28,431 bases of DNA from Thermoplasmatota archaeon (lineage in GTDB: Archaea; Thermoplasmatota; E2; DHVEG-1): contig JAZKSQ010000001.1 of NCBI GenBank assembly GCA_036625995.1, forward strand, positions 1-28,431. Direction: 5' to 3'. Positions 275 through 16,134 of the stretch are shown here, one piece after another; position 1 is the stretch's first letter; every line of letters begins with the position of its first letter. The notes under the pieces were generated by a model. The model did no database searches, had not been told where the DNA came from, and saw only the letters and a program-made list of their open reading frames with translations. The position numbers were made by a program, and so were the translations under genes.

Positions 275-2215
275 ATGAAGATTATATCAAAAGAAGATTT
301 CAATAATTTTATTGATGAATTAATCAGTGATGAAAAATATGACGTGCATGGACCTAAAGAAAAATATGGTGCAAAAAACAAATTTGTGTTTGGCCCTTTA
401 GACTCTTCGGATCAGTTAAGACTAGATTATGATACGACTATATTGCCTCCTAAAAAATATTTTTTACCACAGTATGAAACCATGATGGAATTCAATCTAG
501 ATAAACCACTTGATATTAAAAAAGAAAAGGAAAATAAAAAGAAGCTGCTACTGGGAATTCATCCTTATGATCTGATAGCTATCCTCCAAATGGATAACTA
601 TTATCTTGACAAAGAAGATGTTTCAAAATCCTATTTGGAACGTAGAAAGAATACAATATTAGTTGGTTCCGATGTACTTAATGTATCAGAAAAAGCATTT
701 TTTGGAAGTATGAATACTGGTTCCCTTAACGAAGGATATGCCCTGTTTTTAACTGATTTAGGCAGTAAGGTAGCTATCGAGATAGGCAGCAAGGAGGGAG
801 AAAAATTAATAAAAAAAGCTTCAAGGATGAGAGAAGCTGAGGATTTCGAAAAACAAAAAGTAAAATATGTAAGGAAAATAGCTAACGAAGAATCGGGAAG
901 AGGACTTAAGGTTCATCCTTCTGAATGGTATAATTTACTTGAAGAAAATTATGATAGTGATGTATGGAAAAAACAATCTGATAAATGCCTGTCCTGTGGA
1001 ACATGTACGATGGTTTGTCCAACTTGTTTTTGTTATGATGTAAATGATTATGTCGATTTAAACAAAAAAGGTAAAAGGGTTAGGACATGGGATGGTTGTC
1101 TACTTAGAGATTTTACAAAAGTTGCTTCAGGTGAAATTTTTAGAGAAGACATAATGGATAGATATAGACATCGTTTTTTTAGGAAAGGAAAATATCTACC
1201 TGATAGATTAGGTTATATCGCATGTGTTGGCTGTGGAAGATGTTCAAGTCAATGCGTCCCTGATATTGCAGATCCAGTTAAAGTTATGAACATGGTTTTT
1301 GATGAATCGGATCATTTAATAGAAAAAAAAGAATTTAATTCAAAAAGTATTAAATTGAAACTTGATGAGGTTGATGAAAAAAAATCTAGGAATTTACATA
1401 AACCCTCCCCGGCAACTATCAAAAGGGTAAAAAAATTGACTGAAAATGATACGCTTTTTGAAATACAGTTAGATGAGGGAAAAAAACTTGGCCATGACCC
1501 AGGTCAGTTTGTAGAGTTGTCAATTGCAGGTATAGGAGAAGCTCCTTTTTCAGTTTCTTCAGCTCCTAACGGTAAATCATTTGAACTTGTTATCCGTCGG
1601 ATTGGAGATGTCACAACGGCATTAGAAGACATGAAGACTGGTAACAAAATAGGTATACGCGGACCGTTAGGTAAAGGTTTTGATGTAAATGAATTAAAAG
1701 GAAGAGATTTGTTGTTTATAGCTGGAGGAATAGGAATTGTTCCTTTGCGTTCACTTATAAATTATGTTATTGATAAAAATAATAGGAAAGATTACGGGGA
1801 AATTACGATATTATATGGATGTAAAGAACCCTGTGAGATGTTATTTAGAGAGGAGGTAGATGAATGGGATAAACGTGATGATATTAATCATCGTTTAACT
1901 GTAGATAGCTGTCCAGAAGGAGAATGTTGGGATGGAGACATAGGATTGATAACGAAACTTATTCCTAAAGTCACTTTCGATCCAAAAAACACTTACTCAA
2001 TTATTGTGGGTCCGCCTGTTATGTATAGATTTTGTATCCAACTTTTGCTTGATATGGGTGTACCTGATGAAAACATTATCGTGTCTCTTGAAAGACGAAT
2101 GAAATGTGGAGTAGGTAAATGTGGACATTGTCAAATAAATAACCTTTATGTATGCAAAGATGGACCTGTTTTTAATTATAAAGAAATCAAGGATTTACCG
2201 GAGGCTTTTACATGA
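275..2215 (+). CDS. hydB/hydG: Group 3b (sulf)hydrogenase beta+gamma fusion (4Fe-4S dicluster domain + FAD/NAD(P)-binding 2Fe-2S domain)
   Basis: N-half has CLSCGTCTMVCPTCFC and CVGCGRCSSQC (HydB/AsrA type). C-half has GEAPFS, GPLGKGF, AGGIGIVP, VGPPVMY and ERRMKCGVGKCGHC...CKDGPVF (HydG/AsrB type). One continuous 646-aa frame, directly upstream of hydD and hydA. Confidence 0.9.
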   Translation: MKIISKEDFNNFIDELISDEKYDVHGPKEKYGAKNKFVFGPLDSSDQLRLDYDTTILPPKKYFLPQYETMMEFNLDKPLDIKKEKENKKKLLLGIHPYDLIAILQMDNYYLDKEDVSKSYLERRKNTILVGSDVLNVSEKAFFGSMNTGSLNEGYALFLTDLGSKVAIEIGSKEGEKLIKKASRMREAEDFEKQKVKYVRKIANEESGRGLKVHPSEWYNLLEENYDSDVWKKQSDKCLSCGTCTMVCPTCFCYDVNDYVDLNKKGKRVRTWDGCLLRDFTKVASGEIFREDIMDRYRHRFFRKGKYLPDRLGYIACVGCGRCSSQCVPDIADPVKVMNMVFDESDHLIEKKEFNSKSIKLKLDEVDEKKSRNLHKPSPATIKRVKKLTENDTLFEIQLDEGKKLGHDPGQFVELSIAGIGEAPFSVSSAPNGKSFELVIRRIGDVTTALEDMKTGNKIGIRGPLGKGFDVNELKGRDLLFIAGGIGIVPLRSLINYVIDKNNRKDYGEITILYGCKEPCEMLFREEVDEWDKRDDINHRLTVDSCPEGECWDGDIGLITKLIPKVTFDPKNTYSIIVGPPVMYRFCIQLLLDMGVPDENIIVSLERRMKCGVGKCGHCQINNLYVCKDGPVFNYKEIKDLPEAFT

Positions 2216-2997
2216 AAAAACCAAAAATAGCTTTTTTTGATTTCTCAAGCTGCGAAGGATGTCAGCTACAGGTAGCAAATCTAGAAGAAAAAATAATAGA
2301 TGTGGCTGAAGTCGTAGAAATAGTGTCATTCAGAGAAATCATGAAAGAACATAGTGATGATTATGATATAGTATTTGTAGAAGGTTCAATATGTAGGCCT
2401 ATTGATGAAAAAAGATTGAAAAAAATCCGAGAAAAATCAAAGACAGTTATAGCTTTGGGAGCTTGTGCTCATCTTGGAGGAGTTCAAAGGTTAAGTAATA
2501 AATGGAGTTCTGATGAAAACAAAAAACAGGTATATCCGGAGGCGAATAAAAAAGATATATCTGATAAAAATAAGTATTTCGAAAAACCTCGTCACCGTGC
2601 TCTTGATGAAATAATTGAGGTTGATTATGTTATCCCTGGTTGTCCGATTGATAGAGATGAATTTATAAAAGTTTTAGTGGCTCTTATACAGGGAAAAAAA
2701 CCTCCAATCCCGGATTATCCAGTTTGTGTTGAATGTAAAAAAAGAGAGAATATATGTCTTTTTTCGATAGGTAAATTTTGTATGGGACCTGTTGCAAGGG
2801 CTGGATGTGGTGCAATTTGTCCTACGTTTGGGGCTGAATGCGAGGCTTGCCGAGGTTATGTAAGTCATCCTCATGAGAAAGCCCAAACTGATGTACTCGA
2901 AGAGTATGGGTTAGACGCTGAAGAAATAATGAATAGAAAAACTATGTTTACCAATAAATATGTAGAAACTAAGACGAAGGGGGAAGAAAATGAGTAA
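2212..2997 (+). CDS. hydD: Group 3b [NiFe]-hydrogenase small (delta) subunit
   Basis: SSCEGC, GACA, GCP proximal-cluster motifs plus Cys-rich C-terminus (PVCVEC...CMGP...GCGAICP...CEACRG). ATGA overlap with the previous gene; GGAGG SD. Confidence 0.93.
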   Translation: MKKPKIAFFDFSSCEGCQLQVANLEEKIIDVAEVVEIVSFREIMKEHSDDYDIVFVEGSICRPIDEKRLKKIREKSKTVIALGACAHLGGVQRLSNKWSSDENKKQVYPEANKKDISDKNKYFEKPRHRALDEIIEVDYVIPGCPIDRDEFIKVLVALIQGKKPPIPDYPVCVECKKRENICLFSIGKFCMGPVARAGCGAICPTFGAECEACRGYVSHPHEKAQTDVLEEYGLDAEEIMNRKTMFTNKYVETKTKGEENE

Positions 2998-4288
2998 AAA
3001 TGTATCCATTAATATCGACCATGTAACCAGAGTTGAAGGTCACGGAAATATCGTGTTAAATGCAAAAAACGGTGAAATCAAGAAGTTAGAATGGCAGATA
3101 TCTGAAGCACCTAGATTTTTCGAGTCCTTTGTTAGAGGTAGACCTTATGGCGAAATATCTCATATAACTTCAAGGATATGTGGGATTTGTTCTATTGGAC
3201 ATGCTTTAACTGCTTTAAAAGCTATTGAAAACGCTATGAATATAGATATATCTAAACAGACAGAGCTTCTTAGAAAAATAGCTCTGCACGGTGAAAATAT
3301 GCAGAGTCATATCTTGCATGTTGGATACCTGGTTTCGCCTGATTTATTTTCTGCAGGGAGTGTAATACCTTTAATCGGATCAGCACCGGATACAGTTAAA
3401 AAAATTATTAAACTTCATAGACTGGCTAATGAAATGTCAGAGCTCCTATGTGGTAGAACAACCCATCCGATAAGTCTAATTCCAGGTGGTTTTTCATATA
3501 TCCCATCAGAAAAAAAATTAAAAAATCTTAAAAAAAGACTCGAAGAAATACTTCCTGTTTGTGATGAAGTAGCTAAGGTGATCAAAAAAAATTCTGATAA
3601 ACTCCCAGATTTCAAGCGTGAAACAGAATACATAGGACTTAAAAAAGAAGATGAATATGCATTATATGATGGAGTGATAGCCTCAACAGATACTGGTGAA
3701 CATAAAGTAAAGAATTATGATAAGATTATAAAAGAATTTGTAGTGCCTCAATCAACTGCTAAATATGCAAAACACACCCGAGACTCATATATGGTAGGTG
3801 CTCTAGCGCGTTTTAATCTCAACTCGAAATCATTAAGAAAGAAAGCTAAACAATGGGCTAAAAGCTTCGGTCTCGAGGCGATTAACTATAATCCTTTTAT
3901 GAACAATATCGCTCAAATCGTTGAATATATCCATTCAGTTGAAGATAGTATAGCTTTAATAGATGAACTATTTGAAGAAGAGGTTGATCGTTACGAAAAA
4001 CCTGATTTTGAAGTTAAACCAGGGAGAGGAGTGGGCGCAATTGAAGTTCCAAGAGGTATATTATTTCATGATTACACCTTTGATAAAAACGGTACTTGTA
4101 CAAATGGAAACTGTATAATTCCAACCAATCAAAACCATAACAACATCCAAAAAGATATGGAGGAATTTGTACCTCAGATAATAGATAAACCAAAAAAAGA
4201 AATTGAGTTAAATCTTGAAATGTTGGTTAGAGCTTATGATCCATGTATTTCCTGCAGTACACATTATCTTGATGTAGAATTCAGATGA
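2990..4288 (+). CDS. hydA: Group 3b [NiFe]-hydrogenase large (alpha) subunit
   Basis: RVEGHG, L1 SRICGICSIGH, L2 YDPCISCSTH followed by a 7-aa cleavable extension (YLDVEFR). Confidence 0.95.
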   Translation: MSKNVSINIDHVTRVEGHGNIVLNAKNGEIKKLEWQISEAPRFFESFVRGRPYGEISHITSRICGICSIGHALTALKAIENAMNIDISKQTELLRKIALHGENMQSHILHVGYLVSPDLFSAGSVIPLIGSAPDTVKKIIKLHRLANEMSELLCGRTTHPISLIPGGFSYIPSEKKLKNLKKRLEEILPVCDEVAKVIKKNSDKLPDFKRETEYIGLKKEDEYALYDGVIASTDTGEHKVKNYDKIIKEFVVPQSTAKYAKHTRDSYMVGALARFNLNSKSLRKKAKQWAKSFGLEAINYNPFMNNIAQIVEYIHSVEDSIALIDELFEEEVDRYEKPDFEVKPGRGVGAIEVPRGILFHDYTFDKNGTCTNGNCIIPTNQNHNNIQKDMEEFVPQIIDKPKKEIELNLEMLVRAYDPCISCSTHYLDVEFR

Positions 4289-4292
4289 AAAC

Positions 4293-4769
4293 ATGAAAAA
4301 AAATGCGGTGATTGGATTAGGTAATCCGTTGAGAAGAGACGACGGTATAGGGATATCAGTTTTAAAAAGGTTAGATGAAATTAAAAAAAGATTACCAGCG
4401 GATACAGAATTCATAGATGGTGGCACCGGTGGTTTTAATCTTTTTCACATAATTTCAAAATATAATTCAGTATTGATTATAGATGGGATTTACTTGAGTT
4501 TAAATCCCGGGGAATCTAAACTTTTCAATTTTTATGATATAGAATCAAGTAAAAAAAAATCGTTGAATATTTCTACTCATGAAGAAGATTTCTTAAAAAT
4601 AATTTCCATTGCAAGAAAAATCAATAATAAACCAGAAAAAATTTATATTTATGGAATTCAACCTAAAAACACAGGTTTAGGAAATTCTTTATCAAAAGAA
4701 ATTAAAAAAAATATAGGAAAATACACAAGAGAACTGGAAGAAATAATTAATGATCTATTTGTAGAATAA
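4293..4769 (+). CDS. hycI: Hydrogenase maturation endopeptidase (HycI/HybD family)
   Basis: GLGNPLRRDDGIG, DGGTGG, IIDG and STH motifs; immediately after hydA. Confidence 0.9.
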   Translation: MKKNAVIGLGNPLRRDDGIGISVLKRLDEIKKRLPADTEFIDGGTGGFNLFHIISKYNSVLIIDGIYLSLNPGESKLFNFYDIESSKKKSLNISTHEEDFLKIISIARKINNKPEKIYIYGIQPKNTGLGNSLSKEIKKNIGKYTRELEEIINDLFVE

Positions 4770-5093: not shown

Positions 5094-5197
5094 AATCTAA
5101 TTTTGAGAAGAGAAAAAGCATAGACTATAAATAAAAGTTATCCATCGAAAGATTAGAAATAAAAATTAGTTAGAATATTGGTATGAGGTATTATTCT

Positions 5198-6250
5198 ATG
5201 AGCAAAAAAATAATGCTTTCGCAGGGTGCCGGCGGAAAACAGATGGATGATTTTATTCAAAAAAAGATTACTAAATTTTTTAAAAATAAAAATAATGCGG
5301 AAATACCCCTATCTATGATGGATGACGCAGCTGTCATAGATGATGTGGTATTTACAACAGATTCACATACTATTAGGCCTTTAATTTTTCCTGGGGGAAA
5401 TCTAGGTTCTTTATCTGTTTGTGGAACAGTAAATGATATAGCTGTTATGGGTGCAAAACCTTTGGCTTTATCTGCAGGTTTCATAATTGAAGAAGGGCTC
5501 GCCTATAATATTTTCGAAAAAATCGTTAAATCGATGGGTGAGTATGCTGAAAAATCAGGTGTAGATATTGTGACTGGAGATACCAAAGTTGTAGAAAAAA
5601 AAGCGATTCAAGAATTTATGATTAATACCTCAGGAATAGGAAAAAGAACAGAACTTTTAGAAGAAAATCTTAGAAAATTAAATCAAAAAAGATATACAAA
5701 TTATAGATGGCTTACAGATTCAAATTTAAAAAAAGGCGATAAAATTATTATATCTGGAAATATCGGAGAACACGGTATTGCACTGATGTCATTTAGAGAA
5801 GGATATGGTTTTGAAACAAAAGTAAAATCAGATGTCGCTCCTATAAATTCTTTAGTCGAATCAGCTCTAAAAGTAGGAGGTGTTGTATCTGCAAAAGATC
5901 CCACTCGAGGAGGACTTGCTAACACTTTAAATGAACTAAGCGAGAAATCAAAAATAGGGATTAAAGTATTTGAAGATAAAATCCCTATGTCAAAAGGTGT
6001 AAAATCAGCTTGTGATATATTAGGTTTAGATCCTTTAAGTATTGGAAATGAAGGAAAGGTAGTTTTAGGAGTTAGCCCAGAAAAAGCAGACGAGGTTTTA
6101 GAAAGTATAAAGAACAAAAGATATGGTAAAAAAGCATCTATCATAGGCGAAGTATCAGATGAAATAGATGGAGTAATTCTTGAAACTTCGATAGGTGGAA
6201 AAAGAAATCTCGATAAGCCTTTAGGTGATCCTGTTCCAAGAATATGTTGA
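5198..6250 (+). CDS. hypE: Hydrogenase maturation protein HypE (carbamoyl dehydratase)
   Basis: GAGG, TTDSH, GTVNDIAVMGA, TGDTKVV, DPTRGG and C-terminal PRIC. Start moved from 5183 to ATG 5198, which lies 8 nt after GAGGT (5185-5189). Confidence 0.95.
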   Translation: MSKKIMLSQGAGGKQMDDFIQKKITKFFKNKNNAEIPLSMMDDAAVIDDVVFTTDSHTIRPLIFPGGNLGSLSVCGTVNDIAVMGAKPLALSAGFIIEEGLAYNIFEKIVKSMGEYAEKSGVDIVTGDTKVVEKKAIQEFMINTSGIGKRTELLEENLRKLNQKRYTNYRWLTDSNLKKGDKIIISGNIGEHGIALMSFREGYGFETKVKSDVAPINSLVESALKVGGVVSAKDPTRGGLANTLNELSEKSKIGIKVFEDKIPMSKGVKSACDILGLDPLSIGNEGKVVLGVSPEKADEVLESIKNKRYGKKASIIGEVSDEIDGVILETSIGGKRNLDKPLGDPVPRIC

Positions 6251-6342: not shown

Positions 6343-6780
6343 ATGGACAAACCCCTTCCTAAATCATTTAAAAAAGCACTATGGGTATATCATTGTAATT
6401 CAGGATCTTGTAATGGTTGTGATATTGAAATAATTGCTGCTTTATGTCCTCGTTATGATGTAGAAAGATTTGGAATCAAATTGGTAGGAACACCCCGTCA
6501 TGCTGATGTTTTACTTGCAACTGGCCCAGTTACACGTCAACAAGCTAAAAGAGTTAAAAGAATATATGATCAAATACCTGATCCAAAAGCAGTTATCTGC
6601 GTTGGAAACTGTGGCAATACTGGAGATGTATTTTATGAATCATACAATCTAGTTGGACCGATCGATAACATAATACCAGTAGATGTACATGTAATAGGAT
6701 GTCCTCCACGTCCAGAGGCGATAATTAATGCTGTGGCAAAAGCTTGGACTAAACTTGAAACTTTGGAGGCAAAAAAATGA
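6343..6780 (+). CDS. mbhJ: Group 4 [NiFe]-hydrogenase small subunit (MbhJ/EchC/NuoB-like)
   Basis: GSCNGCDIE, PRHADVLL.TGPVT, VGNC and GCPPRPE motifs. Confidence 0.9.
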   Translation: MDKPLPKSFKKALWVYHCNSGSCNGCDIEIIAALCPRYDVERFGIKLVGTPRHADVLLATGPVTRQQAKRVKRIYDQIPDPKAVICVGNCGNTGDVFYESYNLVGPIDNIIPVDVHVIGCPPRPEAIINAVAKAWTKLETLEAKK

Positions 6781-7322
6781 GCGGAAAAGATAAACTTAGT
6801 CCTGAAGAAATTGTCGATTATTTCAAGGAAGAGTTTTCAAAAAAAATTATGGATTCACGAATTGAAAGACATTCAATCGGTCCTAAAAAAAATGATCTAA
6901 TTCAAATATGGTTTAGGATAGATAGAGAAATATTTAAAGATATAGTTAAACATCTAATGAATTTAGAAGAATATCCTCATTTTGCAGTATCCTCCGGATA
7001 TGAATGGAAAGATAAAATAGAAATCGTAAATCATTTTTCGATATATAATGGTAACAAAGGGAAAGAAATAACTATAAACTTCACTGTTCCTCTTCCAAAA
7101 TCCGACCCAACTATAGAGACAATAAGCGATCTTATACCAGGTGCATTAATTTCAGAACAAGAAAAACAAGAAATGCTTGGTATAAAGGTTAAAAATATAC
7201 CAAAAGATAAACGTGTTTTTATATCAGAAGATTTTCCCGAGGAAATGTATCCTTGGAGAAAAGACGAAAAGTCAGCTGAAAAAATGGGTAGAAATCTGCA
7301 TGAGGTGAAAGAAAATGAGTGA
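6777..7322 (+). CDS. mbhK: Group 4 hydrogenase NuoC-like subunit (MbhK/EchD-like)
   Basis: Lies between the small and large subunits with overlapping stop/start codons. The EQEKQEMLGIKV...KRVFISEDFP..YPWRKD pattern matches the NuoC C-terminal motif. Confidence 0.85.
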   Translation: MSGKDKLSPEEIVDYFKEEFSKKIMDSRIERHSIGPKKNDLIQIWFRIDREIFKDIVKHLMNLEEYPHFAVSSGYEWKDKIEIVNHFSIYNGNKGKEITINFTVPLPKSDPTIETISDLIPGALISEQEKQEMLGIKVKNIPKDKRVFISEDFPEEMYPWRKDEKSAEKMGRNLHEVKENE

Positions 7323-8544
7323 AAACGTTGAAAAAGGAACATACAAGATCCCTATAGGTCCTATTCACCCTGCTTTAAAAGAACCAGTAATGTTTGGTTT
7401 TGAGATAGATGGAGAACGTATAGTTGATGCAGATGTTTATCTTGGACATGTCCATAGAAGTATAGAATGGACTGGAATGAGGAGAAATCCTATTCAAGTA
7501 TTATATCTCGCTGAAAGGATCTGTGGTATATGTTCTTATTGTCATCCAATGTCTTTTGCGCTCGCAGTTGAACGAATCTCTGACATTGAAGTACCTGAAA
7601 GAGCTGAATATCTTCGTGTAATACATGGCGAGCTTGAACGTATTTGTTCCCATACTCTTTGGGCCGGAGTAGCTGCCCACGAAATAGGTTTTGATAGCGT
7701 TTTATATTTCACCTGGCAGATCAGAGAAAAAGCATTAGATTTGACCGAATATTTAACCGGTAATAGAGTTACCAAGGCTATTACTATGATAGGGGGAGTT
7801 AGAAGAGATATAACTGAAGATATGCATCCTAAAATAAATGAAACATTAAAATTCTTAAAAGACAATTTCGAAAAATTGAGAAAGATATTTCTTGACGACA
7901 AAACTGTTAAGATTAGGACAAAAAACTGTGGAGTATTAACTAAAGAGAAAGCATTAAAATTATGTGCTGTTGGACCCACAACAAGAGCGTCAGGAGTTAA
8001 AAAAGACGTGCGTTTAGATCAATCCTATTTTGCCTATGATCAATTGGATTTTGACTATGTAACTCCAGATGTACTAACTGGAGAAGTAAATGGAGATGTA
8101 TATGATAGAATAATAGTTCGTTTATTAGAAGTGAAACAATCTATCGAATTAATAGAGCAAGCAGTAAAACAAATGCCTGAAGGAGACATAGTGGCTGAAG
8201 AAAAAATTGCAAAACTTCTATCACAATTAAAAAAAGTTGAGGGTGAAGGAGTAGGGAGAATGGAAGCTCCTCGTGGTGAAGTTATTCATTATGTTAAAAT
8301 GGATAAAAGCGAACATCCTTATTCATGGAAAGTTAGAGCACCCACCTATAACAATATATTACCTTGGATACCGATGCTTAAAGGCGAACAAATAGCAGAT
8401 ATTCCAATAGTTGCAGCTTCAACAGATCCATGTATGTCATGTACAAATAGAGTAGCTATTGCACATGAAGATAAAAAATATAAGCTATCAAAAGACCAGC
8501 TACATAAAATGAGTGTTGAAAAAACAAGGAGGCTAACGAAATGA
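7315..8544 (+). CDS. mbhL: Group 4 [NiFe]-hydrogenase large subunit (MbhL-like)
   Basis: IPIGPIHPALKEP, L1 ERICGICSYCH, EAPRGE, L2 DPCMSCTNR followed by a 30-aa extension resembling that of Thermococcales MbhL. All four Ni-ligating Cys are present. Confidence 0.92.
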   Translation: MSENVEKGTYKIPIGPIHPALKEPVMFGFEIDGERIVDADVYLGHVHRSIEWTGMRRNPIQVLYLAERICGICSYCHPMSFALAVERISDIEVPERAEYLRVIHGELERICSHTLWAGVAAHEIGFDSVLYFTWQIREKALDLTEYLTGNRVTKAITMIGGVRRDITEDMHPKINETLKFLKDNFEKLRKIFLDDKTVKIRTKNCGVLTKEKALKLCAVGPTTRASGVKKDVRLDQSYFAYDQLDFDYVTPDVLTGEVNGDVYDRIIVRLLEVKQSIELIEQAVKQMPEGDIVAEEKIAKLLSQLKKVEGEGVGRMEAPRGEVIHYVKMDKSEHPYSWKVRAPTYNNILPWIPMLKGEQIADIPIVAASTDPCMSCTNRVAIAHEDKKYKLSKDQLHKMSVEKTRRLTK

Positions 8545-8942
8545 AATTTTCTATGCTTCCACAGGTTCTAATTCAGCTTTTTAAAAAGCCGTTTACAAAT
8601 AAATTCCCTGCGAAATATATTCCTTCTTCAGTAACAAATTTTTTTAAGGATGTAGAAGAAGGAAAAAAGGAGATGATTCCACCGGTTGAAACACCCTCAG
8701 GTTTCAGAGGAAAAATAAAGTATGACAGGGAATCATGCATAGGATGTAAATTATGTATTAAGGTTTGTCCGACAGAAGCAATTGAATTCAAACCTGAAGA
8801 TAAAAAAATCAAGATTTATCTTTCAAGATGCTGTTTTTGCAGTCAATGCAATGATATATGTCCAAAAAACTGCCTTACAATGGGAGATGAGTTTCTTCTT
8901 GCCGATACAGACAAATACTCTGATGATTTGATAGTAGAATAA
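8541..8942 (+). CDS. mbhN: 2x[4Fe-4S] ferredoxin-like subunit (MbhN/EchF/NuoI-like)
   Basis: KPFTNKFP, FRGKIKYDRESCIGCKLCIKVCP and CCFCSQCNDICP. Confidence 0.9.
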   Translation: MKFSMLPQVLIQLFKKPFTNKFPAKYIPSSVTNFFKDVEEGKKEMIPPVETPSGFRGKIKYDRESCIGCKLCIKVCPTEAIEFKPEDKKIKIYLSRCCFCSQCNDICPKNCLTMGDEFLLADTDKYSDDLIVE

Positions 8943-8980
8943 AAAAATAATAAAATCTTAAATTTATTTTATTGAAATAT

Positions 8981-11176
8981 ATGCGTATTATTTTCAAAGG
9001 AATAGTTCAGGGAGTCGGATTTAGACCTACAGTCTATCGAACCGCAAAAAAAATGGGTCTCAAAGGCTACGTTTTAAACAAAGGATCAGAAGTAGAAGTA
9101 TTAGTCGATAAAAAACATGAAGAATTTATTAAAAAATTAAAACATAATCTTCCTTCAATTGCCGAAATAAAAGAAATCGAACTAAAAAAAGATGACCGTG
9201 TTTTTAATGACTTTAAAATAATCAAAAGTAAAACAGGAGAAAAAGAATCGCTTATTCCCACTGACACAGCTACTTGTAAAAGATGTCTCAAAGAAATGTT
9301 CGATAAAAACGATAGGAGATATCATTTTCCTTTTACGAACTGTACTGTCTGTGGGGCAAGATATAGTTTAATAGAAGATGTACCTTATGATAGGGAAAAA
9401 ACAGCCATGAAGGATTTTCCTCTATGTAAAAAATGTAAAAATGAATATGAAGATCCATTTAATAGAAGGTACCATGCTCAAACTATCTCTTGTCCAGATT
9501 GTGGTCCACAATACCATTTGTATGACGAAAAAGGAGATAAAATTGACTCAGATAACATAATAAAAACTTTTTCATCACATATAGAAAAAGGTTCAATCGG
9601 TGTAATTAAATCATGGGGTGGTATGCATATATGTTGCAAATTAGAATTAATAAAAAAACTTAGGAAATGGTATAAACGCCCTCAGAAACCTTTTGCGATA
9701 ATGGTTAAAGATTTAGATACTGCAAAAAAATTCGGTAAAATAAATGATTTTCAAAAAAAGGTTCTTTTATCTAAAAGTAGACCAATTATTTTAGTTGAAA
9801 AAAAACGATCTAAAAATATTGCCCCGGGGCTAAATACAATAGGTATATTTCTGCCTTATACGGGTCTACATCATCTATTATTTTCATATCTAGACTCTGA
9901 AGCTTTAATTATGACCTCGGCAAATCTTCCAGGTGAACCTATGATCATAGACAATAAAAAAATATTTTCTTTGAACGCAGATATATACCTTTTACATAAT
10001 AGAAAAATTCCAAACAGAATTGATGACTCTCTGTTAAGAACATATAAAAACAAAAGATTTTTTATAAGAAAATCAAGAGGACATGTGCCCAAACCTATTA
10101 AAGTAGAGTATAAAGAAAGAATTCTAAGTGTCGGTCCTGATGAAAATGTGACAGGAAGCATATCTTCAAATAATAACATATTTACTACTCAGTATATTGG
10201 AAATTCTAGGTATTATTCAACTTTGAAATTCCTTGAGGAAAGCCTAACTCATCTAATGAATCTCACTATGGAGAAACCAAGTTTGGATGCAGTAGGTATG
10301 GATCTTCATCCAGGATATGATACACGTATAACTGCAAAAAAATTTTCTGAAGAATATGGAGTTAAAATCTTCGAGGTTCAACACCAATGGGCTCATGCTG
10401 CCTCATTGATGTTGGAAAACAATGTGGATGAAAGCGTTGCGTTGACTCTTGATGGTCTTGGATTTGGAACAGATGGAAATCTTTGGGGTGGTGAAGTGCT
10501 CAGATCTGATTTCAACTCATTTGAAAGAGCCGGACATTTATCATATTTACCTTTGATAGGAGGTGACAAAGCTTCTAAGGATCCCAGACGTATTGTTTTC
10601 GCTATATTTGACAAACTTGGAGAAAAAAAAATTTTCAGAGGGAAAAAAGCTGAAATTTTCTCTAAAATAATAGAAAGCTCTCCCTTATCCAGTAGTATGG
10701 GTCGATTTTTAGACGCCATTTCGTGTTATTTAGAAATCTGTACAAAAAGGACATATTCCGGTGAGCCGGCTATGAAACTTGAAAAATATCTATCATCTGG
10801 TAAAAATAAATATGAATTTGATGTTTTTGTGAAAAATTCAGTGATAGATACTATAGATCTCTTCAAACAACTGGATGGGAAAAGTAAAAAATTAGAATTA
10901 ACAGAGAAACAAAAATCTGATCTTTCATATTCTTTGGTTAAATCTGTTGTCGAAGCTCTAACAGATATTGCCATAAATGAAGCCGAGGATAAAAATATAA
11001 AAAATATAGGTATAACAGGGGGAGTTTCCTACAATATTCCTATTGTAAGCATATTTAGAAAAAGATTAGAAAATACGGATTTTAATGTACTTCTTCATGA
11101 CAGGATACCTAATGGCGATGGAGGTATATCCATAGGGCAAAATGTAATAGTTGGAAATAAAATAAGCAAAAATTAA
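8981..11176 (+). CDS. hypF: Carbamoyltransferase HypF
   Basis: Acylphosphatase-like GIVQGVGFRP, two Zn-finger pairs (CKRC...CTVC; CKKC...CPDC), YrdC-like TSANLPGEP and Kae1-like HQWAH...DGLG.G / NGDGGISIGQ. ATG 8981 is preferred to TTG 8972. Confidence 0.95.
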   Translation: MRIIFKGIVQGVGFRPTVYRTAKKMGLKGYVLNKGSEVEVLVDKKHEEFIKKLKHNLPSIAEIKEIELKKDDRVFNDFKIIKSKTGEKESLIPTDTATCKRCLKEMFDKNDRRYHFPFTNCTVCGARYSLIEDVPYDREKTAMKDFPLCKKCKNEYEDPFNRRYHAQTISCPDCGPQYHLYDEKGDKIDSDNIIKTFSSHIEKGSIGVIKSWGGMHICCKLELIKKLRKWYKRPQKPFAIMVKDLDTAKKFGKINDFQKKVLLSKSRPIILVEKKRSKNIAPGLNTIGIFLPYTGLHHLLFSYLDSEALIMTSANLPGEPMIIDNKKIFSLNADIYLLHNRKIPNRIDDSLLRTYKNKRFFIRKSRGHVPKPIKVEYKERILSVGPDENVTGSISSNNNIFTTQYIGNSRYYSTLKFLEESLTHLMNLTMEKPSLDAVGMDLHPGYDTRITAKKFSEEYGVKIFEVQHQWAHAASLMLENNVDESVALTLDGLGFGTDGNLWGGEVLRSDFNSFERAGHLSYLPLIGGDKASKDPRRIVFAIFDKLGEKKIFRGKKAEIFSKIIESSPLSSSMGRFLDAISCYLEICTKRTYSGEPAMKLEKYLSSGKNKYEFDVFVKNSVIDTIDLFKQLDGKSKKLELTEKQKSDLSYSLVKSVVEALTDIAINEAEDKNIKNIGITGGVSYNIPIVSIFRKRLENTDFNVLLHDRIPNGDGGISIGQNVIVGNKISKN

Positions 11177-12392: not shown

Positions 12393-13469
12393 TTATTTTC
12401 TAAAACGATATTCTATATTACAGGTTCCTTCTCTGCTTACCATACAAGGCCCTATAGGTTTTTCAGGTGTACATTTTTTTCCAAAGTGAGGGCAATCACA
12501 CGGTTCGTTAAGTCCTTTAAGTATGTTACCGCATAGACAACCAGCAGGTTCTCTAAATTCTTGTTCTTTGATGCAGCTTAGTTTGTTTTCATATTTTTTT
12601 CTCGCATCAAATTTTTGATATTTTTCTTTAATCTTTAAACCAGATTTTGGTATGGTAGGAAAACCTCTCCATTTTATATCAATAGGTTTGAAGACTTTTT
12701 TCATTAATTTTTTTGCTTTTATATTTCCCTCTTTTTTAACTACTCTGGTATATTCATTTTCGATTTTTGGTTCTTTTGTTTTTATTTGCCTTATAAGCAT
12801 TAAGCAGCCGGCTAATACATCTAAGGGTTCAAAACCTGCTATAACCTGAGGGATATTGTATTTTGTTGAAATAAAATCAAATGGTTTACTACCTATTATA
12901 GTTGAAACATGTCCTGGTTCTATGAGTCCATCAATGTTTATTTCTCGGCTATCTATTAGTGTTTTCAAAGCATTAGGCATAGTGCGATGACAGCATAATA
13001 CAGAAAAATTATCTGGAGGGTTTTGATCTATAATCGCTGCAGTAGTAGGTGCAGTTGTTTCAAATCCTACAGCCATAAAAACAATTTCTTCAGATGGATT
13101 TTTTCTTGCTATATCAACTGCATCTTCAATACTATAAACAGTTCTTATTTTACATCCTTCAGATTTAAGGTCGTTTAACGATTTTTCTTCACCTGGTACT
13201 TGAATCATATCGCCGAAAGTTGTGATAACAAGCCCGTTTTTTGCTAAAGTCAAAACCTCTTCAATTTCTCTTGTAGTGGTCACACATACAGGGCAACCTG
13301 GTCCTGGTCTTATTTCTATTTTATTATCTTTAAGTAGGCTGTCTATACCGTTTTTAATAATAGTATCCTGATGGGTTCCACAGACATGCATGAAATTGCT
13401 TTTAATATCATTTTTTTTAATTTCTGATAGTATTCTCCTTGCTGTTTTTTTATCTTTAAGCGAAAACAC
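12393..13469 (-). CDS. hypD: Hydrogenase maturation protein HypD
   Basis: MHVCGTH, GPGCPVC, GFETTAP, PGHVS and the C-terminal Fe-S motif (CLC...CPHFGKKCTP...PCMVSREGTC). GTG start directly abuts the hypC TAG. Confidence 0.96.
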   Translation of the reverse strand: MFSLKDKKTARRILSEIKKNDIKSNFMHVCGTHQDTIIKNGIDSLLKDNKIEIRPGPGCPVCVTTTREIEEVLTLAKNGLVITTFGDMIQVPGEEKSLNDLKSEGCKIRTVYSIEDAVDIARKNPSEEIVFMAVGFETTAPTTAAIIDQNPPDNFSVLCCHRTMPNALKTLIDSREINIDGLIEPGHVSTIIGSKPFDFISTKYNIPQVIAGFEPLDVLAGCLMLIRQIKTKEPKIENEYTRVVKKEGNIKAKKLMKKVFKPIDIKWRGFPTIPKSGLKIKEKYQKFDARKKYENKLSCIKEQEFREPAGCLCGNILKGLNEPCDCPHFGKKCTPEKPIGPCMVSREGTCNIEYRFRK

Positions 13470-13706
13470 CTACTTTTCACTCTCTTCTTGGTTTAACATA
13501 TTTTTAAAAAGATCTAATGTTCTTTCAGCTTCATTTTTGTCTATTTTCTGTATTGCAAATCCTGCATGTACTATTACATATTCGCCTTTTTTTGCATCGA
13601 CTAGTGAAATGTTAGCTTTTCTTCTAGTTCCTTGTCCATAGTCGATTATTGCATGGTTCTTATCCCCTTTAATTTCCACTATCCTTCCAGGTATTGCAAG
13701 ACACAC
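13470..13706 (-). CDS. hypC: Hydrogenase maturation chaperone HypC
   Basis: True start is GTG at 13706, giving the canonical MCLAIPG; VIVHAGFAI also present; 78 aa. Confidence 0.95.
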   Translation of the reverse strand: MCLAIPGRIVEIKGDKNHAIIDYGQGTRRKANISLVDAKKGEYVIVHAGFAIQKIDKNEAERTLDLFKNMLNQEESEK

Positions 13707-13730
13707 AGATTGGGCACATAGGGGAAGTAA

Positions 13731-13738
13731 TTTATAAA
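13731..13738 (-). promoter_or_regulatory. Candidate TATA box for a leaderless hypCD transcript
   Basis: TTTATAAA about 25 nt upstream of the hypC GTG; no SD visible. Confidence 0.5.
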
Positions 13739-13835
13739 AGTTAGCTCTAATATGAACAGTTAAAGCTAAATACAATAATATTCTTTTGACGGAGCGTTAC
13801 TACATTGTTAAAAAAATTCTAAAGGTTGGATTTAT

Positions 13836-15359
13836 ATGAGGGAATTAGATACTACCGAATCTGTCTGTCCTGCATGTTTTAAAGAAGGGAAAATAAATAA
13901 AATTCCTGCTAAAATAATAGAGGAAGATGGAAAAGTATACATTACTAAAAGTTGTTTTGATCACGGTGATTTTAAAGATATTTATTTTGGGGATGCAGAC
14001 TTATATAAAAAATGGATTAAATATAAGAGAGAAGGGACACACTCCCCTGATGTTAAAACTAAACTTTTTGATTATCCAAAACTTTATGATATCCATAAAT
14101 CACAGAGTGTTTTAACTAATTTATTGGTTACCAATAGATGTAACTTAAGATGTAGTTATTGTTTTATGAACGCAGGTGCAGCCGGTTATGTTTATGAACC
14201 AAGTTTAGAAGAAATCAAGGATATGATGTTAAAAGCTAGAAACGAAAGCCCTATTGGATCTAAGGCAATTCAAATAACTGGTGGTGAACCTACTGTCCGT
14301 GAAGACCTGTTAGATATCGTTAAGATGGCTAAAGATGTGGGATTTTCCCATGTTCAAGTTAATACTAATGGTCTAAAATTAGCCGAAAGCGCCGATTATT
14401 GTAAAAAACTTAAAGAAGCGAAAGTAAACACAATCTATATGAGTTTCGACGGTGTAACAAAAGATACAAACCCTTGGATAGAACAAAATAAAAAGGCTAT
14501 CGATAACCTTAGAAAAGCAAATCTTAGAGCTGTTCTTGTACCGGTTCTTATTGGAGGAAAAAATCTTCATCAAGCAGGAAAAATCGTACAATTCGCTATT
14601 GACAATATGGATATAATAAGAGGGGTTAACTTCCAACCGATATCATTTTGTGGTAGAGTAACTAAGATTAGAGATGAAACTAGAGAGAAACAACGTGTCG
14701 ATTATGTAAAAATGATGGAAGTATTAGAGGAAGAATTTGATAATATGATTTCTCGTGACGACTTCTATCCTGTTCCATTCGTGTTTCCAATATCAAAACT
14801 AATTGAAATGATTAAAGGCGAAACACAGGTAGAGTTTACTGCACATCCAGGATGTGGAGGAGCTACATATCTATTTGTTAAAGATGGAAAACCCCTACCG
14901 GTTACACGTTTCATAGATGTAGAAAGCCTTTTGGATTTTATTGATGAACAAAGTAAAACTAAAGGCCCTTTCAAGAAAATTAGAATAGCCTCTGCTTTTA
15001 TGAAGGATGTAGATAAATTCGTTGATTATGACAAAGCACCCGATGGTTTTAACCTTAAGAAATTATTAAAAGAAGCTGCTTTAGGAGGCAGCTACGATTC
15101 GCTGCGAGGTTTTCATTATAAGAGTCTATTCATTGGATCAATGTGGTTCCAAGATTCATTTAATCTCAATATAGATAGACTCAAAAGATGCGTTATACAT
15201 TATACTACTCCTGAAGGAATCATTCCGTTTTGTGCATATAACGGTTTAGGATACGGAGATATTATTAGAGAAAAACATTCTATACCTGTTAAGGAATGGG
15301 AAGAAAAAAACGATAAGAAACTGAAAGAAGATTTAAGAAAAGATGTGGCCTTGACTTAG
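13836..15359 (+). CDS. tes: Radical SAM enzyme, tetraether synthase (Tes/GDGT-MAS, MJ0619) family; atypical
   Basis: Rubredoxin-like CPAC...CFDH, radical SAM CNLRCSYC, GGEPT, RGVNFQPISF.GR, DFYPVP, HPGCG, MWFQD...RCVIHY and IPFCAYN all match my recollection of MJ0619. The CxxxCxxC upstream of the SAM motif is missing (see findings). Confidence 0.85.
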   Translation: MRELDTTESVCPACFKEGKINKIPAKIIEEDGKVYITKSCFDHGDFKDIYFGDADLYKKWIKYKREGTHSPDVKTKLFDYPKLYDIHKSQSVLTNLLVTNRCNLRCSYCFMNAGAAGYVYEPSLEEIKDMMLKARNESPIGSKAIQITGGEPTVREDLLDIVKMAKDVGFSHVQVNTNGLKLAESADYCKKLKEAKVNTIYMSFDGVTKDTNPWIEQNKKAIDNLRKANLRAVLVPVLIGGKNLHQAGKIVQFAIDNMDIIRGVNFQPISFCGRVTKIRDETREKQRVDYVKMMEVLEEEFDNMISRDDFYPVPFVFPISKLIEMIKGETQVEFTAHPGCGGATYLFVKDGKPLPVTRFIDVESLLDFIDEQSKTKGPFKKIRIASAFMKDVDKFVDYDKAPDGFNLKKLLKEAALGGSYDSLRGFHYKSLFIGSMWFQDSFNLNIDRLKRCVIHYTTPEGIIPFCAYNGLGYGDIIREKHSIPVKEWEEKNDKKLKEDLRKDVALT

Positions 15360-15375
15360 AAAAGAACATGTTTGT

Positions 15376-16134
15376 TTAGCCTAGGTTTATCAAAGGCATA
15401 GTGATTTTTATCAGCCACATTATTAATATCCCTGTTATAAATACTAATAGGGTTAGCATATATCTTTTGAAATTAAGTTCTTTTTTAATTTCTGGTACTA
15501 GATCAGTTGCTGAAATATATAAAAAACCTCCAGCAGCAAAAGGAAGTAGATATCCTGCTGCGGTGTCAACGGATTTTGACAAAAAGAATCCAAAGATACC
15601 GCCTACCACAACTGTTAAAGCTACAATAAAATTTAATATTAGGGCTTTCTTCTTTTCAAATCCCCCATATACAAGAACACCAAAATCTCCGATCTCTTGG
15701 GGTAGTTCATGTGCAGCTATGGCCACTGTTGTCGTTAAGCCTAGGGGAGTTGATACCACAAAGCTTGTAGCAATAATTAGGCCATCGATGAAATTGTGTA
15801 TTGCGTCTCCAAACAGATTCATATAATGAAAAGTATGAATTTCACATTTATCATTGTGGCAATGCCTCCAATGTAATATTTTTTCTATAACAAAAAATAA
15901 AATAAATCCAATTAATACGAAAATAAAAACATCTGTTCCACCTGTTTTTTCAACTGCTTTAGGTAAAAGATGAATGAAGGCTCCGCCCATTAAAGCCCCT
16001 GCTGAAAGACTTACAAGTAAAATAAGAAATTTATTTAGACTCTTTTCTCTTACATAAAGCGATAATATTCCAACAAAAGCAAGTAATGCAATAAATAAAG
16101 TTGTAATAACTATCATTAATAAATCCATTATCAT
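15376..16134 (-). CDS. ZIP-family divalent metal transporter
   Basis: AFIHLLP, His-rich loop HWRHCH...HTFH, HNFIDG (TM4), HELPQEIGDF (TM5), AAGGFLYIS..DLVPE; GAGGTGA SD. Confidence 0.92.
   Translation of the reverse strand: MIMDLLMIVITTLFIALLAFVGILSLYVREKSLNKFLILLVSLSAGALMGGAFIHLLPKAVEKTGGTDVFIFVLIGFILFFVIEKILHWRHCHNDKCEIHTFHYMNLFGDAIHNFIDGLIIATSFVVSTPLGLTTTVAIAAHELPQEIGDFGVLVYGGFEKKKALILNFIVALTVVVGGIFGFFLSKSVDTAAGYLLPFAAGGFLYISATDLVPEIKKELNFKRYMLTLLVFITGILIMWLIKITMPLINLG

Follow-up and report, generated by a model that had tools for sequence, protein, structure and literature searches.

An archaeal lineage of tetraether lipid synthases that lacks the cysteines of the N-terminal [4Fe-4S] cluster

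Can a tetraether lipid synthase (Tes) still join lipid chains once the cysteines that hold one of its iron-sulfur clusters have been lost? The question is raised by a gene of a Thermoplasmatota archaeon (GTDB lineage E2; DHVEG-1), which lies at positions 13836..15359 on the forward strand of a 28,431-nucleotide stretch of DNA (contig JAZKSQ010000001.1, positions 1 to 28,431, of assembly GCA_036625995.1); the whole stretch is hereafter termed the window. The window is AT-rich (∼32% G+C), and the open reading frame encodes 507 amino acids followed by a TAG stop codon. Tes, also named GDGT-MAS (glycerol dialkyl glycerol tetraether (GDGT)/macrocyclic archaeol synthase), couples the tails of archaeal lipids into membrane-spanning tetraethers. 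A 2026 review presents it as a four-metallocentre enzyme (PMC13459092). In the Methanocaldococcus jannaschii enzyme, MJ0619, the ligands that hold the N-terminal auxiliary cluster, [4Fe-4S]N, are C73, C77, C80 and a conserved His, and the cluster has a surface location along with the rubredoxin domain (Lloyd et al. 2022, PMC9433317; a 2026 preprint; PMC13459092). The original prediction for this locus, made from the DNA letters, was that the gene encodes a Tes homologue in which all three of these cysteines are missing and the other metal-binding and active-site motifs are kept. It proposed asking whether the loss defines a clade, whether the genome holds a second, canonical tes and how the site is modelled, and it named an assembly error as a possible cause. 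The data presented here reveal a broad and real variant, which is most likely functionally ordinary.

Profile score, fold and phylogeny all identify the product of 13836..15359 as a Tes orthologue. Against NF045702, the NCBIfam equivalog model of tetraether lipid synthase, the protein scores 566.7 bits (cut-off 450) and covers profile positions 2-485 of 486. The members of this family include the Tes proteins of Methanosarcina acetivorans and Sulfolobus acidocaldarius (Zeng et al. 2022, PMC8941075), and the cut-off was passed in the control genomes of these two organisms and of M. jannaschii. The window protein lies above the same cut-off, ∼100 bits under the canonical, three-cysteine Tes of related genomes (671-678 bits in G018 and G029). 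Pfam places PF23545 (Zn_ribbon_HMPTM, the MJ0619-type zinc-ribbon/rubredoxin module) at residues 4-51 and PF04055 (Radical_SAM, for radical S-adenosylmethionine (SAM)) at residues 97-254. The sole close solved structure is that of M. jannaschii GDGT-MAS/Tes (7TOL/7TOM, PMC9433317; E 3.8e-126, HMMER against the PDB), with ∼42% identity over the full length. An AlphaFold2 model built on a 56-sequence alignment (mean predicted local distance difference test (pLDDT) score of 92.4) displays the four-domain fold of MJ0619, comprising the rubredoxin domain, the N domain, a partial TIM barrel and the C-terminal cluster domain. Foldseek aligned the model with 7TOM/7TOL at E 1e-59, a template modelling (TM) score of 0.89-0.91 and a root-mean-square deviation of 2.5-2.8 Å over ∼513 columns (41-42% identity). 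The match to TrsS, a radical-SAM (seleno)protein (NCBIfam NF045646), is partial, being confined to residues 6-312 and scoring 289.5 bits, below the cut-off of 490. TrsS and other Tes-like paralogs have the rubredoxin ribbon, N-cluster motif and radical-SAM core in common with the Tes family; they retain the N-cluster cysteines, whereas the window protein does not. Because it lacks the [4Fe-4S]N site, the window protein is classed as a variant of the Tes family rather than as a standard member.

The former [4Fe-4S]N site is the segment K74-H87 (KTKLFDYPKLYDIH), encoded by nucleotides 14055..14096 on the forward strand, and direct reading of these codons revealed no cysteine, as had been predicted. 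In the HMMER alignment with chain A of 7TOL, residues 78-87 (FDYP-KLYDIH) are matched to CPYDCGLCPNH; as the crystallized chain carries 20 extra N-terminal residues, its C93, C97 and C100 are the native C73, C77 and C80. Position C73 of MJ0619 is thus occupied by F78, C77 falls into a one-residue gap between P81 and K82, C80 is replaced by Y84 (codon TAT) and H83 corresponds to H87, such that the His is the only residue of the site to be kept. From the invariance of this His we infer that H83, of the CxxH motif, is the fourth ligand of [4Fe-4S]N, the published description giving the His no number. MJ0619, via its PDB entry, is the one named characterized enzyme with which the site was compared, the Tes proteins of M. 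acetivorans, S. acidocaldarius and Thermococcus kodakarensis being left out. Across an alignment of 136 members of the clade described below, the Cys triad is absent from every sequence, Y84, H87, S89 and Q90 are invariant, and D79/D85 are common. The AlphaFold2 model presents the former cluster loop as an ordered coil with a pLDDT of ∼94. As a guess, the space vacated by the cluster may be taken up by two side chains, those of the invariant Tyr84 and of Trp60, which is specific to the clade. A Tyr84/Trp60 relay for electron hopping was set aside as unlikely on general grounds: aromatic hopping suits high-potential hole transfer, not reduction of a radical-SAM cluster at low potential.

The same segment is found well beyond this contig. 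A 96%-identical protein from a different ENA assembly (P0002) has the same 14 residues at K74-H87. Of the 120 nearest 90%-identity protein clusters, 118 are free of Cys over the 32 residues that precede the radical-SAM motif, and the remaining two contain a single Cys there, outside the N site. Cys-less N segments are present in 22 loci of named Thermoplasmatota metagenome-assembled genomes (MAGs) and, at 56-64% identity, in 15 loci from Hadarchaeota, Undinarchaeota, Aenigmatarchaeota, Woesearchaeota, Parvarchaeota and other MAGs. An independent sequencing run (X1) supplied a 539-base Logan contig, 98% alike and gapless, which spans 13995-14533; none of its listed differences falls in 14055-14096, although 64 differences are unlisted and the support that it lends is weak.

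The rarity of the loss was assessed in a superfamily sample of the 150 best representatives, each standing for one 50%-identity cluster; 115 of them had the segment covered and the radical-SAM motif intact. A Cys-Cys-Cys-His N site is found in 102 of these 115, while only ∼6 have lost at least two of the cysteines. The TrsS-like outgroups retain CPxDCGLCxxH, indicating that the N cluster is ancestral and that its loss is derived as well as rare. A first tree, of 91 rows and with the N-segment columns removed, gathers all sequences of the window's type into one 25-row group (Shimodaira-Hasegawa-like approximate likelihood ratio test (SH-aLRT) support of 83), which lies inside a 27-row group (99) that has L033, a canonical Hadarchaeia protein, at its base. 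In a second tree of 40 rows, rooted on the canonical Tes of the window genome's own class, L033 is sister (100) to a 32-row, wholly Cys-less group (98); within this group the sequences from Thermoplasmatota fall into a single clade (100), nested between rows from Hadarchaeota and DPANN. With TrsS-like outgroups included, the Cys-less clade nests among three-Cys Tes representatives, beside the canonical Hadarchaeia Tes. The named Tes proteins of M. acetivorans and S. acidocaldarius were left out of the trees; MJ0619 scores 425-471 bits against the window protein, L033 and P0125. Both trees thus answer the clade question with a single group, and they point to a single loss in the ancestor of a clade whose members come from Hadarchaeota, several DPANN phyla and one Thermoplasmatota family. 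The sister protein L033 (JBKHIS010000026.1) is 60% identical to the window protein and displays the same downstream signature, HKSQSVLTNL-VTNRC-LRCSYCF, but it keeps CPYDCGLCARH at the N site; the changes from L033 to the clade include W51F, A60W, C84Y, A189C, G142S and S289D.

The distribution of the two Tes types within the window genome's relatives suggests how the variant came to be there. In the window genome itself (1.54 Mb, 212 contigs, 84% complete) no second Tes was found, the next-best match being an unrelated radical-SAM protein. A class-wide search covered 197 genomes, including 107 from the window's own family. A Tes match was detected in 98 of the 107, and 94 are of the window type by identity (71-81% for full-length proteins and 72-78% for fragments); direct reading of the N segment covered 15 of these family genomes, the rest being typed by identity. 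Three genomes representing genera of the family (G018, G078 and G088; loci L043, L072 and L073) have only a canonical three-Cys Tes (VCPYDCGLCNLH, 43-44% identity), which falls together with canonical Tes proteins from the other families of the class. Both types occur in G035, G081 and G053 (canonical loci L074, L075 and L076), and the canonical copy of G053 contains an internal TAA stop. The other families of the class possess either canonical Tes or a two-Cys variant (SCGLC..HKNS). In view of the trees and the either/or pattern of the two types, the simplest reading is that the native Tes of the family was canonical and that the Cys-less enzyme is a xenolog, which would have been acquired horizontally and displaced the native gene in most genera. 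The suggestion of a neofunctionalised paralog in the original prediction is disfavoured by the same pattern, as the Cys-less protein is the sole Tes of the window genome and, by identity, the main type in 94 of 107 sampled family species, mostly in place of the canonical enzyme.

Three further groups of sequences came to light in these searches. The two-Cys Tes lineage of the same class (L058-L063 and L066 in family f2, L085 of G161 in f9 and L086 of G179 in f4) has a non-Cys residue at the C73 position and a His a few residues upstream; its members score 422-458 bits, at or just under the NF045702 cut-off. Its existence indicates that the N-cluster site is variable in several lineages of the class.

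At least eight genomes of the window's family encode, in addition, a second full-length Tes paralog that is 50-63% identical to the window protein, in open frames of 486-538 amino acids (L071 in G005, L077 in G103, L078 in G106, L080 in G118, L081 in G105, L089 in G115, L090 in G116 and L091 in G107). These paralogs form one clade beside the family's main Tes, and the normal copy is always present too. Their N site is Cys-less and the radical-SAM CX3CX2C motif is also lost, as in TNRCNLRHNQDFLDAN. They keep the rubredoxin C/C/C/H, C340/C452/C466, Met436 and GGEP, with Q267 in all but one, while Y456 is replaced by Cys in seven and by His in L071. The second paralog looks like a conserved Tes relative that would be unable to cleave SAM, which is stranger than the loss of the N cluster itself. 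Finally, a Cys-less Tes that is 60% identical to the window protein occurs in a MAG labelled as a bacterium of the candidate phyla radiation (CPR) (L028, DAOWLG010000045.1, titled Candidatus Nealsonbacteria; genome G201). Neither geranylgeranylglyceryl phosphate (GGGP) synthase nor CarS was found in G201, and L028 represents either a bacterium with an archaeal-type Tes and no archaeal lipid pathway or a mis-binned contig.

If the window protein is an active Tes, the sites that carry the published chemistry should be preserved, and the remaining motifs listed in the original prediction (the rubredoxin site, the SAM triad, HxxC, RC, PFC and the Met-Tyr pair) are indeed all present. The rubredoxin-like mononuclear Fe site, C11-x2-C14 ... 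C40-x2-H43 (13866..13964, forward strand, within the PF23545 module), fits the published C9X2C12X20C33X2H36. Within the clade C11 and C40 are invariant, C14 is found in 131 of 136 members and H43 in 25 of 25 clade rows of the tree; H43 is likewise invariant in the 56-sequence modelling alignment. The radical-SAM cluster motif CNLRCSYC (C102, C106 and C109; 14139..14162, forward strand), in the Pfam Radical_SAM domain, is invariant in the clade and in all tree rows. Alignment with 7TOL places the domain that holds the C-terminal auxiliary cluster at 14853..15233 on the forward strand, with C340 (in HPGC), C452 (in RC) and C466 (in PFC) invariant across the 136 clade members. The labile Met436 and Tyr456, 20 residues apart, are kept in 25 of 25 clade rows, Y456 being the equivalent of Tyr459 in MJ0619. 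F110, Q267 and P268 are conserved and align with Phe106 and Gln268, published contacts of 5'-deoxyadenosine (5'-dAH). Comparisons among species within the same genus and family show purifying selection on the gene: non-synonymous divergence (dN) is 0.12-0.19 and synonymous divergence (dS) is saturated, and their ratio, omega, is 0.04-0.09 where computable. Two cysteines of the radical-SAM core, C189 (helix 186-194) and C272 (in the QPISFCGR strand motif), were considered as substitute cluster ligands and rejected, since neither is universal in the clade and both lie outside the N segment. C189 is nevertheless enriched in the clade, being present in 133 of the 136 aligned members and in 23 of 25 clade rows, compared with 6 of 66 other tree rows; C272 is absent from 11 of 136 members and C189 from 3.

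What the lost cluster does in MJ0619 bears directly on the consequences of its absence. The original prediction, in addition to recognizing the loss, held that Met439 helps to bind the N cluster and that this cluster traps the lipid radical, from which a different radical-capture chemistry was suggested. The literature places these functions elsewhere. Met439 is a labile ligand of the C-terminal cluster, the first lipid radical is captured by a sulfide of that cluster and has been detected as a thiolated lipid, and the M439A, Y459F and Y459L variants are still active (PMC9433317; the 2026 preprint; PMC13459092). The only role proposed for the auxiliary metal centres is the tuning of redox potential and electron transfer (PMC9433317), and no mutational test of the N cluster was found in these three sources. 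As the C-cluster site of the window protein is fully intact, nothing points to a new capture chemistry, and that idea is not supported.

These observations favour the view, to which we assign a probability of about 0.65, that the gene encodes a working tetraether synthase with two [4Fe-4S] clusters instead of three. The protein is taken as an active Tes, with two [4Fe-4S] clusters and a rubredoxin-type Fe, because all the ligands needed for the published chemistry are present and invariant; MJ0619, which shares the rubredoxin C3H site, CX3CX2C, and the three Cys and labile Met of the C-terminal cluster, differs in carrying three [4Fe-4S] clusters and one Fe. In the proposed mechanism the radical-SAM cluster (C102/C106/C109) would cleave SAM reductively, as in MJ0619, and the 5'-deoxyadenosyl radical would abstract a hydrogen from the terminal methyl carbon of a phytanyl chain. 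A sulfide of the C-terminal cluster (C340/C452/C466) would then hold the lipid radical as Met436 detaches, and a second SAM cleavage would yield a second lipid radical that attacks the C-S bond to create the biphytanyl C-C link. The predicted products are glycerol trialkyl glycerol tetraether (GTGT) or GDGT, or macrocyclic archaeol, and the window enzyme most likely still makes ordinary tetraether lipids. The change would be limited to electron entry, the radical-SAM cluster being reduced either directly by a soluble donor or via the retained rubredoxin-type Fe. The glycerol monoalkyl glycerol tetraether (GMGT) synthase Gms, set beside Tes here by description only, is also a radical-SAM enzyme with auxiliary clusters and catalyses C(sp3)-C(sp3) bond formation in lipids (PMC13459092). 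It belongs, however, to a SPASM-type family, acts on GDGT-0 and has no rubredoxin domain, so metal-domain content varies among lipid-coupling enzymes (PMC13459092).

Several points weigh against this assignment. The clade is represented by sequences, and no cultured carrier of it was found. Some Tes homologues belong to organisms, such as Halobacteria, in which GDGTs are undetectable (PMC8941075), so homology alone is no proof of GDGT production, and the lipids of sedimentary Thermoplasmatales have never been assessed (PMC11868695). The retention of the N cluster in 102 of 115 representatives, including the distant TrsS-like paralogs, implies that it normally matters, and its loss could change rate, donor or product. 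At 84% completeness, moreover, the window genome could conceivably hold a second tes outside the assembled part.

The alternative that survives best, although we consider it improbable, is that function has shifted: the Cys-less clade would join lipid tails but with another product spectrum (for example, only macrocyclic archaeol or GTGT), another substrate or a separate electron-partner protein. The strong conservation of the N cluster elsewhere and the GDGT-negative Halobacteria are compatible with such a shift, as are the clade-fixed residues that differ from the canonical sister (F51, W60, S142, C189 and D289) and the clade-derived paralogs that have also lost the radical-SAM motif in at least eight related genomes, as if the lineage were experimenting. 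Set against this, no change is seen in the residues of the active site and C cluster or in Met436 and Tyr456, the protein scores above the Tes equivalog cut-off, and it is the only Tes in most family genomes, where it occurs instead of the canonical enzyme. When open reading frames within 2.5 kb of tes were clustered for 25 loci, no ferredoxin-like or other partner gene was conserved across the clade. Marginally less probable still is a re-wired lipid-coupling system, in which the loss of the cluster would have changed the donor or product (for instance, a bias to GTGT or macrocyclic archaeol), and in some genomes the enzyme would act jointly with the derived paralog that lacks the radical-SAM motif and keeps the radical-trapping C cluster. 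Were this true, it would be wrong to take the many Tes hits in benthic Thermoplasmatota, Hadarchaeota and DPANN as a sign of ordinary GDGT-0 production.

It is doubtful that the N site has been rebuilt around another metal or cofactor, whether by His87, Tyr84 and nearby Asp residues or by Cys189 and Cys272. His87, the presumed fourth ligand, is invariant despite the loss of the cysteines, Tyr84 is invariant as well, Asp is common at 79 and 85, and C189 is enriched in the clade; however, the His is also invariant in proteins that keep the cluster and may be structural, no known metal-site motif is formed, and the two cysteines are missing from some members and sit in the radical-SAM core. That the gene is an inactive, decaying relic is highly improbable: a cofactor site has been lost, and the paralogs of sister genomes have also lost the radical-SAM motif, but the frame is intact, identity stays at 72-81% over ∼90 family species despite saturation at synonymous sites, none of the catalytic ligands varies and the model is confident. 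An assembly or sequencing artefact that removed the Cys codons, for which only the fragmented MAG of 212 contigs and the single base that separates TAT at Y84 from a Cys codon could be cited, is for practical purposes dismissed by the clade-wide conservation of the loss, the identical residues in P0002, the 118 of 120 nearest clusters, the 37 named-MAG loci (22 from Thermoplasmatota and 15 from other phyla) and the independent 539-base contig.

The genomic context is consistent with a lipid-synthesis role without defining a partner for the enzyme. The window genome carries PcrB/GGGPS, CarS and two GGR genes, the ether-lipid pathway that supplies the substrate of Tes, and among four DPANN genomes with a Cys-less Tes, GGGPS is encoded by all four and CarS by three. 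Divergent from tes are hypD and hypC (12393-13775, reverse strand), and tes is followed by a ZIP metal transporter (15376-16134, reverse strand). Among 22 Thermoplasmatota loci, many being short, 11 preserve the hypD-hypC/tes arrangement, and no locus of another phylum does so; the arrangement probably reflects inherited gene order and not functional coupling. In DPANN and Hadarchaeota loci a gene for a small regulator of winged-helix type adjoins tes on its upstream side (L027, L029, L031 and L039, and also L024, L033 and L041), a neighbour common to Cys-less genes and to the canonical sister L033. Elsewhere in the window are two [NiFe]-hydrogenase modules on the forward strand, the first (275-4769) comprising a Fer4/FAD/NAD subunit, the small and large subunits and a HycI protease, and the second (6343-8942) a compact, group-4-like set of four genes; a hypE-like gene (5183-6250) and hypF (8972-11176), both on the forward strand, are interleaved with them. 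Public sequencing runs were ranked by how many sampled words they have in common with the gene: hypersaline-lake and salt-lake metagenomes come first (0.46 and 0.20, values too small for the source sample to be named), marine and tidal-flat metagenomes follow at small values, and no RNA run was listed as a holder of the gene. The named MAG relatives originate from marine sediment, cold seeps and a sulfidic spring.

Gene hits to Tes have already been reported from uncultured Thermoplasmata, DPANN and others (PMC8941075, PMC11868695). In the literature searched, coverage of which was partial and is no proof of novelty, no mention was found of Tes homologues that lack the N-cluster cysteines; apparently undescribed are the clade-wide loss of the N ligands, its single origin and the replacement of the canonical gene. 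Tes is the gene marker by which uncultured archaea are judged able or unable to make GDGTs, the lipids on which TEX86 and related sediment proxies are based. In one benthic Thermoplasmatota family, sampled here in 107 species, and in several genomes of DPANN and Hadarchaeota, the main Tes type is without one of the enzyme's four metal centres, and this Cys-less enzyme appears to have spread horizontally and replaced the canonical one. For geochemists, the activity of the clade is worth establishing before its genes are counted as GDGT sources. For enzymologists, it offers a natural experiment, which suggests that the N cluster is dispensable for C-C coupling and that the difference lies in the route of electron entry.

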